Source: an uncultured Haloferula sp. (GTDB lineage: Bacteria; Verrucomicrobiota; Verrucomicrobiia; Verrucomicrobiales; Akkermansiaceae). From it: 64,000 nt of DNA. The DNA lies in assembly GCA_965652295.1 (NCBI GenBank), contig CBFGTS010000003.1, positions 250,232 to 314,231 of the forward strand. Direction: 5' to 3'. Position numbers and translations under genes: made by a program. Shown piece after piece: positions 1 to 3,000 of this stretch (position 1 is the first letter of the stretch; each line of letters opens with the position of its first letter). Under the pieces are notes generated by a model. The model ran no database searches. It had not been told where the DNA came from and saw nothing but the letters and a program-made list of their open reading frames with translations.

Positions 1-3000
1 CCTCGAAATGGGAGATCATCGAGGCCGGCCTGAAATGCCTCCAGGGCAAGGGCATCGTGAACTCGATTTCCCTCAAGGAAGGCGAGGAGAAGTTCAAGGA
101 ATGCGCCCGCACGATCATGAAATTCGGCGCGGCCACCGTGGTGATGGCTTTCGATGAAAACGGCCAGGCCGCGACCTACGAGGAGAAGATCCGCATCTGC
201 GAGCGCGCCTACCGGATCCTCGTCGATGAGGTCGGCTTCAACCCGCAGGACATCATCTTCGACCCGAACATTCTCACCGTCGCCACCGGCATCGAGGAGC
301 ACAACAACTACGCCGTCGATTTCTTCAACGCGACGAAATGGATCAAGGAGAACCTCCCCGGGGCCAAGGTCTCCGGCGGCGTCTCCAACGTCTCCTTCTC
401 CTTCCGCGGCAACAACCCGGTCCGCGAGGCGATGCACGCCGCCTTCCTCTACCACGCCGGCAAGGCGGGCATGGACATGGGCATCGTCAACGCCGGGATG
501 CTCGAGGTTTACGACGAAATCGCGCCCGAGATGCTCAAGCACGTCGAGGACGTCCTCCTCAACCGCGACCCCGATGCCACCGAGCGCCTCCTCGATTTCG
601 CCGAGCAGTTCAAGGGCGTGAAAAAGGAAGCCCAGGTCCAGGACCTCGCCTGGCGCGACACGCCTGTGGAAAAGCGTCTCGAACACGCGCTGCTGCGCGG
701 CATCGACAGCTTCATCACCGAGGACACCGAGGAAGCCCGGGAGAAATATGGCCGGCCGTTGAAGGTCATCGAAGGTCCGCTGATGGATGGCATGGGCGTC
801 GTCGGCGACCTCTTCGGGGCCGGTAAGATGTTCCTTCCGCAGGTCGTGAAATCGGCCCGCGTGATGAAGAAGGCGGTCGCTTATCTCGAGCCGTTCATGG
901 CTGAGGAAAAGGAGATCAAGATCCTGGGAATCATCGACAAGCTCCGCGCGGAGGATCCCTCGCTTTCCGAGGCGAGCGCCCGCATCAAGGCCGAGAAATC
1001 CCTCACCGCCGGGCGCGTCATCATGGCCACGGTGAAGGGTGACGTGCACGACATCGGCAAGAACATCGTCGGCGTGGTGCTCGCCTGCAACGGCTTCGAA
1101 GTGATCGACATGGGCGTGATGGTTCCCTGCGACAAGATCCTCGATACGGCGATCGAGAAGGGTGCCGACATCATCGGACTCTCCGGTCTGATCACGCCGT
1201 CGCTCGATGAAATGATCCACGTCGCCAAGGAAATGGAGCGCCGCGGCATGAGCCTGCCGGTCCTCATCGGAGGTGCGACGACATCTCCCGCCCACACCGC
1301 GGTGAAGATCGCGCCGCACTACAGCGGCCCGATCGTCCATGTCCTTGATGCCTCCCGTTCGGTGCCCGTCACCACGACGCTGTTGTCCGAGGACGGGCGT
1401 GAGAAATTCATCACCGACAACGCGGCCAAACACGAGAAGCTGCGGGAGACCTTCAACAAAAAGGACAAGCCCACCGTTTCGTATGGAGAAGCGGTTTCCA
1501 ACCGCTTCATCCCCGACGGCGGCTGGGACAGCTACACCCCTGCCAGGCCGTCGTTTCTGGGCACCCGCGTAATCGACGGCCAATCGCTGCGCGAGCTCGC
1601 CGAGTACATCGACTGGACGCCATTCTTCCATGCCTGGGAGATCCGCGGCGTGTGGGACAGGGAAACCAAGACCCTCAAGACCCGGAACGAGGAAGGTGCG
1701 AAGCAAGCCCAGGAGCTGTTTGCCGAGGCGCAGGAGCTGCTCGAACAGATCATCGCCGAGAAGCGCTTCACCGCCCGCGGCATCTACGGATTTTTCCCCG
1801 CCAATGCCGAAGGTGACGACCTCATCGTCTGGACCGACGACACCCGTAGTAGCGAGCGAGCGCGTCTCCACACGCTGCGCCAGCAGCTCGCCAAGGAAAC
1901 CGACAAGCCGCACCTGGCGTTGGCTGATTATGTCGCACCGAAAAAAGAACTCTCCCCTACCAGTGGCATGACCGTCCCGGTCATGAACCCCACGGGCGTG
2001 ACCAAACGCGAAGGCTCCAACCTCCCCCACTGGTCCGACCAAGGTTCCACCTACGCCGTCACGTTCCGTCTTGCTGACGCGCTCCCTCAGGAGGCCCTCC
2101 GCCGCTACCTCGATGCGAAGACCGAAGCCTTCAACTCCCTCAAGCATGCCCGATCCACCGGCGACGCCGCAATGGTCGAGCAAGCGGAGCACAATCTCTT
2201 CGAAGCCTTCTCCGAGCATCTTGAGCAAGCGCTCGAAGCAGGCCATGGTGCCTGTCTGCTGCAGGAACCCGAACTGGCCGAACTCGTCCAAAATGCCCTC
2301 AAGCACTTCGACGGCGAACGCTACGACCTGCTCCATTGGGCGGTGATGCCGAATCACGTCCACGTGATCGTCCGGCCGAAAGAGGAGCACGCATTGCCTG
2401 AGATCCTCCACTCCTGGAAATCGTTCACCGCGCATGAGATCAACAAGTGCCTTGGCAAGAGGGGCGACGTCTGGCAGGACGAATCCTATGACCACCTGAT
2501 CCGCGGGCCGAAGGACTATGGAAACCAAGCCGCCTATCTGGAAAGGCATTCAACCCGCTGGAAGAGCGATCGTATCGCCAAGGATGAGAACGCTGCTCAG
2601 GTTCATGACCGGGACGGTCATTCCACTGGTCACCAGGCGGACTACATCGGGGCTTTCGTCGTCGGCATCCACGGGGCGGACGAGTGGGCGAAGGAGGTCT
2701 CCGAGAAGGAGACCGACCCTTACAAATCGATCATGATCAAGGCCGTCGCCGACCGCCTCGCCGAAGCCTTCGCCGAGCTGCTCCACCACCGCGCGCGGGT
2801 CGAGTGGGGCTACGAGCGGCCGAACGAGTTCAACCACAACGAACTCATCAAAGAGCTCTACCGCGGCATCCGCCCGGCTCCCGGCTACCCGGCGCAGCCG
2901 GACCACACGGAGAAGCCGGTCTTGTTCGATCTACTGGAAGCATCGGAGAAAACCGGCGTCACGCTCACCGAAAGCTGTGCGATGCACCCCGGTGCGGCCG

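Follow-up and report, generated by a model that had tools for sequence, protein, structure and literature searches.

A REP-bounded RAYT transposase read in frame within the methionine synthase of an uncultured Haloferula sp.

The DNA analysed here (the window) is a stretch of 64,000 nt from contig CBFGTS010000003.1 of the uncultured Haloferula sp. assembly GCA_965652295.1, the source genome being designated G000. It opens within metH, a single-copy gene in G000 which starts approximately 1.4 kb ahead of the window, continues without a stop through window positions 3-3146 and measures 1514 codons from stop to stop in the genome. Positions 1959-2630 are occupied by a REP-RAYT-REP unit that is read in frame within a loop of the MetH activation domain (Table 1). 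An earlier note on this DNA had placed the insert in that loop and 31-bp inverted repeats at its ends, and both claims are borne out: Pfam recognizes metH domains on either side of the insert in one open frame, and the two 31-nt arms are 97% complementary, forming the longest near-perfect pair in positions 1-6000 of the window. Two copies of the 23-nt REP core are present in the window, whereas 100 shuffles gave an expectation of 0.00. The insert lacks a stop codon, and no ribosome-binding site is evident in it.

Table 1. Coordinates of metH, the REP arms and the RAYT features in the window.
Feature	Position	Strand	Basis or detail
metH 5' part (end of folate domain, cap, cobalamin domain, first half of activation domain)	3-1958	+	Pfam Pterin_bind, B12-binding_2, B12-binding, Met_synt_B12
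CCT, seven to five bases 5' of GTGG; predicted cut site, contains CT dinucleotide	1956-1958	+	Conservation among genome REP copies
Left REP arm	1959-1989	+	GTGG guide 1963-1966; 8-bp perfect stem 1967-1985 with 3-nt loop; hairpin z -3.4
RAYT (Y1 HUH transposase) core, His-ligand clade	2019-2570	+	Profile matches; fold match to 4ER8
HUH motif (H-V-H)	2355-2363	+	Both His in 41/41 of clade
Catalytic Tyr	2535-2537	+	Aligned with TnpA-REP Y115; Tyr in 40/41 clade members
His at Tyr+4	2547-2549	+	Position of metal ligand N119 in TnpA-REP
Right REP arm (inverted)	2600-2630	-	Core 2604-2626, one mismatch at stem foot; hairpin z -2.1
metH 3' part: second half of activation domain and stop codon	2631-3146	+	Met_synt_B12 positions 118-273

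The length of exactly 672 bp given in the earlier note holds as a distance between the repeat arms, but not as the limits of the unit: measured from motif to motif, the loop spans 246 aa in G000 and 16-23 aa in empty alleles, so that no empty site defines the insertion to the base. The CT dinucleotide conserved in the REP family lies at 1957-1958, immediately outside the left edge proposed at that time. Two ATG codons (1968 and 1983) were considered as internal starts but are not favoured, as both lie inside the hairpin, neither has a purine-rich site upstream, and translation from either would still yield a fusion with half a domain.

Downstream of metH (3153-12707) lies a gene resembling a helix-turn-helix regulator, followed by what we take to be a cell-division cluster of ftsZ, ftsA, ftsQ, ddl, a murC-murB fusion and murG. 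The window further contains recG (41386-43515), of normal length and without a cassette, and a tRNA gene near its end (63878-63949). About 95 bp before the metH start, and so outside the window, a doublet of the same REP that is exceptionally long at 284 bp (L200; G000:C3:248466-248749) encloses three similar internal repeats and has no Rfam match; Rfam models found no riboswitch upstream of metH. Elsewhere on this contig (L003; G000:C3:43525-43863), a free-standing IS200-like gene lies between inverted GTAG-footed hairpins of another REP family. In several relatives, MetH is interrupted in frame by another kind of insert, 200-420 aa long, between its cap and cobalamin domains (L064 in G021, L065 in G037, L066 in G028, L067 in G027, a shorter one in L068 of G034, and P0037 and P0042); this insert contains a P-loop, matches Zeta_toxin weakly in the two copies scanned (E 3e-7 and 7e-7) and is patchy across families.

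The identification of the insert as a RAYT/Y1 transposase, proposed in the earlier note from its motifs, is upheld by profile and structure searches. The insert scored 30.7 bits against Pfam Y1_Tnp (cut-off 23), and its best family match was NCBIfam REP_Tyr_transpos (NF047646; E 2.6e-18), at 66.3 bits and below the curated cut-off of 80. The best PDB sequence match was E. coli TnpA-REP (4ER8; E 0.0014). The motifs lie where they had been reported, namely LPHW at 2022, YAVTFRL at 2052, NHVH with histidines at 2355 and 2361, WKSFT at 2415 and an 11-residue stretch at 2472. A Y1 fold with an HUH motif and one catalytic tyrosine is thus present; this tyrosine, which had not been named before, is the residue aligned with Y115 of TnpA-REP.

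In a tree of 169 domains, the MetH RAYT falls in a 41-member clade (SH-aLRT 98) whose hosts are two MetH sites and a U32 peptidase only; this and the other trees are quick searches with SH-aLRT support alone. The HUH histidines are conserved in 41/41 and 41/41 members, the catalytic tyrosine in 40/41, and the guide-recognition stretch keeps its W (41/41), Q (39/41) and R (41/41). The Y-x-x-x-N-P signature is replaced by Y-L-E-R-H(-S) in the insert: the position of N119 is occupied by His in 40/41 members of the clade, compared with Asn in 127/128 of the other domains, and the His-type clade nests among NP-type domains. Since the clade lacks both the class 2 Y---NP signature and a C-terminal tail, its activity could be altered or lost. 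No His-type member was seen among the best 120 short homologues (107 being NP by pattern and 13 read by eye) or among the 10 free-standing loci within the best 80 of a genome-wide scan, and no free-standing source of the MetH cassette was found in G000, G004, G011, G018 or G039. Within these lists of top matches, the His-type clade is found only in fused form. Close homologues carry the source labels Haloferula, Luteolibacter and Verrucomicrobiales.

The RAYT core is under purifying selection. Its dN/dS was 0.088-0.227 in 8 of 10 cassette pairs, the other two being saturated, and that of the MetH flanks was 0.10-0.14. The dS of the RAYT is 2-3 times that of the flanks, similar in size in three comparisons, and the excess goes with a lower GC3 (0.75 vs. 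0.87).

The arms belong to a GTGG-REP family that is dispersed in G000, largely as inverted doublets outside genes. At up to three mismatches there are 50 copies, 7 of which are flanked by 100 open codons on both sides, and 16 inverted pairs; apart from the MetH pair, 14 of these measure 101-122 bp and one 284 bp. The CCT 5' of the guide is conserved among the 50 copies (C 35/50, C 42/50, T 43/50). According to the available part of one study, characterised RAYTs cut at CT, and CC and CA cuts are also permitted with a GTGG guide in one system (PMC8266576). The right arm in MetH has no CCT and has lost one stem pair, and for these reasons the MetH copy of G000 may have lost its mobility as a unit; CCT is likewise missing from most cassette-flanking REPs in other copies. 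Even genomes with RAYTs that differ by a dS above 1.3 share one and the same 23-nt REP.

The distribution of this REP follows that of the cassette. Among 41 relatives it was found in five, exactly those with the embedded cassette. No such REP was seen near the 17 other RAYT loci of these five carriers, nor, at up to four mismatches, around any of the 9 further Y1 loci that were scanned in G000; the ispG and alaS cassettes of G000, which lay outside that scan, carry different hairpins. Two larger samples were then compared at a threshold of six copies, which was chosen after the data had been seen; the samples overlap, many of their genomes are fragmented, related genomes are not independent, and copy counts include the 1-3 REPs flanking the cassette itself. 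In the order sample (251 genomes), six or more copies occurred in the three carriers only, and three non-carriers had 1-2 copies. In the family sample (401 genomes), 12 genomes had six or more copies, and 8 of these carry a cassette flanked by this REP; all 8/8 genomes with both cassette and REP have 6-70 copies. The four REP-rich genomes without the cassette are G387 (11 copies), G340 (26), G269 (6) and G335 (6). At the same metH site, G269 retains the left REP arm alone and G335 the right arm alone, each in frame, the site in G340 is occupied by a different RAYT with a different REP, and the loop in G387 is short and altered. These four look like recent losses of the cassette, yet they count against a perfect rule, and the single arms could instead mark places where a REP landed but no RAYT ever followed. 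REP populations have been described as decaying once their RAYT is absent (10.1101/2021.07.10.451892, in the part available).

The earlier note had proposed a comparison of empty and filled orthologous sites, and empty ones are common. The 41 genomes yielded 30 metH loci, of which 3 are filled (G000, G018 and G039), 26 empty and one unparsed. The motif-to-motif loop is 244-267 aa in filled alleles and 16-23 aa in empty ones; removal of 1959-2630 would leave 22 aa, a length inside the 15-24 aa span of empty alleles. The MetH allele nearest to that of G000, in G021 (dS 0.33), is empty, and the filled G018 is more distant (dS 0.46). In the MetH tree, from which three unparsed rows were omitted, all His-type alleles at this position (site B) fall in one clade (SH-aLRT 97), intermixed with empty alleles whose loops are mostly shortened or altered. 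The empty sites look like imprecise deletions, and one old insertion with repeated deletion fits the MetH tree better than repeated homing.

Copies of the same RAYT clade with the identical REP were found within a U32-peptidase gene in G004, G011 and G393. The identity is 59-62% for G004 and G011. The metH site is empty in both of these genomes and the U32 gene of G000 has no RAYT, which together indicate that the cassette has moved between host genes at least once. In approximately unbiased (AU) tests of groups that were named after the first tree had been seen, a grouping of the His-type site-B RAYTs without the U32 copies was not rejected (p 0.19), leaving the direction between MetH and U32 either way, and at least two RAYT lineages have occupied the MetH site of G000 (p 2.8e-6). 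The U32 loop itself looks like a REP landing site. In the U32 gene of G000 (C24, approximately 40248-40300), an in-frame hairpin pair resembling the ispG-cassette REPs lies at the same loop, and the U32 gene of G011 (L045) contains a second doublet of the same REP, in frame and without a RAYT, about 170 codons downstream of its cassette.

In-frame RAYTs in other housekeeping genes, for which the earlier note had proposed a scan, proved to be numerous. G000 itself has two more with hairpin ends of their own, in ispG and alaS (C17:82318-82881 and C17:91659-91991). All of the 75 closest matches in the family sample sit in open frames of at least 415 aa, and the best 80 loci of the genome-wide scan comprise 63 internal, 7 terminal and 10 free-standing cases, some being the same proteins as those already listed by genome, so that the counts are not additive. 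Hosts include ValS, LeuS, AlaS, IspG, CarB, DnaE, DinG/YoaA, CinA and DUF5107 proteins. Related cassettes in DNA polymerase III alpha, DinG/YoaA helicases and CarB (L167, L154, L172, L192, L199, L184 and L189) come from records labelled Verrucomicrobiota, Planctomycetota and Armatimonadota. Two separate RAYT domains occur in single MetH, IspG, AlaS and DUF1156 proteins (P0002-P0008, P0010, P0011, P0013, P0015, P0022 and P0026).

A model of the activation domain with its insert reached a pLDDT of 78.8 with a 39-row alignment, which replaced a single-sequence fold at 37.6. The split activation domain superposes on a solved MetH (Z 37.3, 320/326 residues aligned, rmsd 2.3). The insert likewise matches the fold of 4ER8 (Z 13.8, 129 residues, rmsd 2.5), and the REP-coded stretches are disordered in the model (pLDDT below 50 over model residues 161-186 and 369-388). 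Both the activation domain and the RAYT are thus predicted to fold. TnpA-REP is described, in the portion of the paper available, as a monomer in which H59, H61, N119, H123 and the auto-inhibitory E161 coordinate the metal (PMC3479197). As a monomer, a RAYT of this kind could feasibly live inside another protein.

The right junction is bridged with zero differences by a 701-nt contig from another study, and the left by only about 21 letters, as Logan contigs break at the REP. Two DNA and two RNA runs, searched as contigs which drop rare variants, gave 15 listed joints, none of them the 1958/2631 joint. One joint at 1987/2588 (run X4, 27 letters) was considered as an excision product and rejected, being read as a REP doublet of about 110 bp located elsewhere. 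Two 151-nt contigs of depth 2 from an RNA library match the insert exactly; they are a weak hint of transcription at best and may be DNA carry-over, and stretches that lack RNA cover count for nothing either way. Except for the tRNA, nothing in the window matched Rfam at the gathering score, and the insert has no room beyond its ORF. An intein begins with Cys or Ser and ends with His-Asn before Cys, Ser or Thr. The junction residues of the insert (T... and ...G|H) do not fit this rule and no intein family matched at E<=0.1, in agreement with the absence of an intein signature remarked upon before.

All of these observations identify the insert as a real RAYT cassette under selection that is probably translated. 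The unit is, in our judgement, likely translated as an inserted domain of MetH whose RAYT is predicted to fold by itself and likely still acts on matching REP hairpins. This rests on the lack of a stop, the intact catalytic residues, the purifying selection, the dispersed REP family that accompanies the cassette and the presence of a second host gene. According to this proposal, REPs of the family would land in frame in tolerant loops, as occasionally would a whole REP-RAYT-REP unit. Having neither a stop codon nor an evident ribosome-binding site, the unit would borrow the promoter, start and stop of metH, and the REP arms would be read as disordered, flexible linkers which allow both domains to fold. 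The tethered RAYT, a monomer like TnpA-REP, could then bind and nick single-stranded REPs elsewhere and so sustain the population of REP doublets. For the most part the unit would be inherited along with metH; imprecise in-frame deletion would often remove it, and on rare occasions it would move to another gene or give way to another cassette. A bolder version, to which we give an even chance, holds that this RAYT lineage is an obligate passenger domain of housekeeping enzymes, akin to a non-splicing intein, and that it has an active site remodelled to three histidines, works while tethered within MetH, drives the REPs and relocates its whole cassette from gene to gene.

Other explanations of the filled and empty sites have to be weighed against a stable fusion. 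The RAYT could behave as a homing-like parasite that nicks an empty metH after DNA exchange, with the cassette copied in as happens with inteins, and the patchiness would then reflect repeated invasion. The alternation of filled and empty alleles within one MetH clade, the empty state of the closest allele (G021) beside the more distant filled one (G018), the succession of at least two RAYT lineages at the site and the elevated dS of the RAYT over its flanks would all suit such a history. However, where alleles in the filled clade are empty, their loops are short and altered or retain a single REP arm, as deletion predicts, the His-type site-B alleles all belong to one MetH clade, the dS excess is alike in three comparisons and tracks the lower GC3, and the empty sites offer no hairpin for recognition by the RAYT; we consider homing improbable. 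The strong purifying selection, the derived His-ligand clade at two MetH sites and the frequent loss of the flanking cut sites would also be expected of a domesticated module, kept for a service to MetH or the cell (such as nucleic-acid binding tied to methionine status) rather than for REP upkeep. Yet close relatives have lost it freely (26/30 loci are empty), the REP family tracks the RAYT domain, and the occurrence of the same clade in the U32 peptidase and of related RAYTs in ValS, LeuS, AlaS, IspG, CarB, DnaE and DinG reveals no host-specific logic, which makes domestication quite unlikely.

Of the three fates that the earlier note had envisaged for the insert, a tolerated fusion using host expression fits best. 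Removal of the unit by ssDNA excision, by RNA splicing via the 31-bp stem or by protein splicing would restore a MetH of normal size; the RNA fold does join the two arms in a 30-bp stem, and the loop remaining after removal would fall in the size range of empty alleles. We nevertheless regard removal as very unlikely, given that no such joint was among those listed for the four runs, the absence of any Rfam intron or intein family match, the deletion-like empty sites and the open frame kept by every filled copy, which RNA splicing would not need. That the assembly is at fault, or that metH is dead and MetE stands in for it, is hardly credible: the break of the Logan contigs at the REP leaves the left junction thinly bridged and MetE is indeed encoded in G000, but the same architecture recurs in G018, G039 and other genomes, the contig from another study spans the right junction, and the flanks have a dN/dS of about 0.1. 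Given MetE, metH may still be non-essential, and selection on its frame could be weaker than assumed.

In the literature searched, with subscription journals largely outside its scope, no description was found of genes that contain an entire RAYT cassette in frame. At least one survey of the RAYT family filtered such fusions out: in the available text of Quentin et al. (2018, PMC6006769), Y---NP is given as the signature of class 2 and long fusions were discarded. The words "fused", "fusion" and "in-frame" are absent from the accessible text of Bertels (2017, PMC5581495). Why single-copy RAYTs persist, and whether their own gene ever moves, are questions still unanswered in the field. A defined RAYT/REP pair can here be traced across genomes, in one gene, in another gene, deleted or replaced, with the REP population following, and RAYT-dependent REP maintenance and cassette mobility thereby become testable. 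If the passenger reading is true, it would be direct evidence that RAYTs jump, and in-frame hiding would be their route of persistence in this phylum. The arrangement also adds to introns and inteins a third means by which a mobile nuclease can reside within conserved genes, and the loops that it occupies point to positions tolerant of insertions in MetH, tRNA synthetases, IspG, CarB and DnaE.

Several known systems resemble parts of this arrangement. Inteins are mobile nuclease genes inside conserved genes which they do not inactivate, and the MetH unit shares this habit; unlike them, it has no detected splicing domain or ribozyme and appears to stay in the protein. The same likeness and the same difference apply to IStrons, which leave host function intact (PMC4227781, in the part available). 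With the IS200/IS605 transposases (TnpA of IS608 and ISDra2) the insert shares the Y1 HUH fold (Z 12-14), but it is present in one copy, has inverted identical REP ends and no Y---Q, and scores only 22 bits against the IS200 cut-off of 55. Closer parallels are the intragenic REPs of Opitutus terrae and the Rickettsia palindromic elements, GTAG/GTGG repeats lying in frame in known proteins; in the available text, in-frame REPs are most frequent in Opitutus terrae (Verrucomicrobia) and deemed neutral in loops (Di Nocera et al., 2013, PMC3733652). The inserts described there encode approximately 7-80 residues and no enzyme, whereas the MetH case places a whole transposase between REPs; no embedded RAYT is reported in the available parts of that paper, and "methionine" is absent from its text and four supplement files as accessed. 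The closest likeness is to the REPtron or REPIN-RAYT systems (TnpA-REP 4ER8; S. maltophilia group 3), with which the cassette shares HUH and one Tyr, the WQ-E--DH-IR guide-binding stretch, inverted perfect hairpins with a GT[AG]G foot on either side, dispersed REP doublets of about 110 bp and a conserved 5' CT. Subclass 2.7 of Quentin et al. (2018, PMC6006769), as given in the available text, likewise has NHVH and WQ motifs with long GTRG REPs. The MetH RAYT differs in lying in frame inside a gene, being neither free-standing nor accompanied by extragenic flanking REPs, and its clade differs in having His for Asn at Tyr+4 and in lacking NP and the C-terminal tail. RAYTs have been described, in the available part of one report, as keeping to one extragenic location, without evidence that they transpose themselves (10.1101/2021.07.10.451892), whereas the MetH-type cassette occupies different host genes. 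Beyond the mere presence of the cassette, what appears to be new from these comparisons is the REP co-occurrence, the switch of host gene, the deletion scars and the change of ligand from Asn to His, and we regard the MetH RAYT cassette as a variant form of the REPtron.
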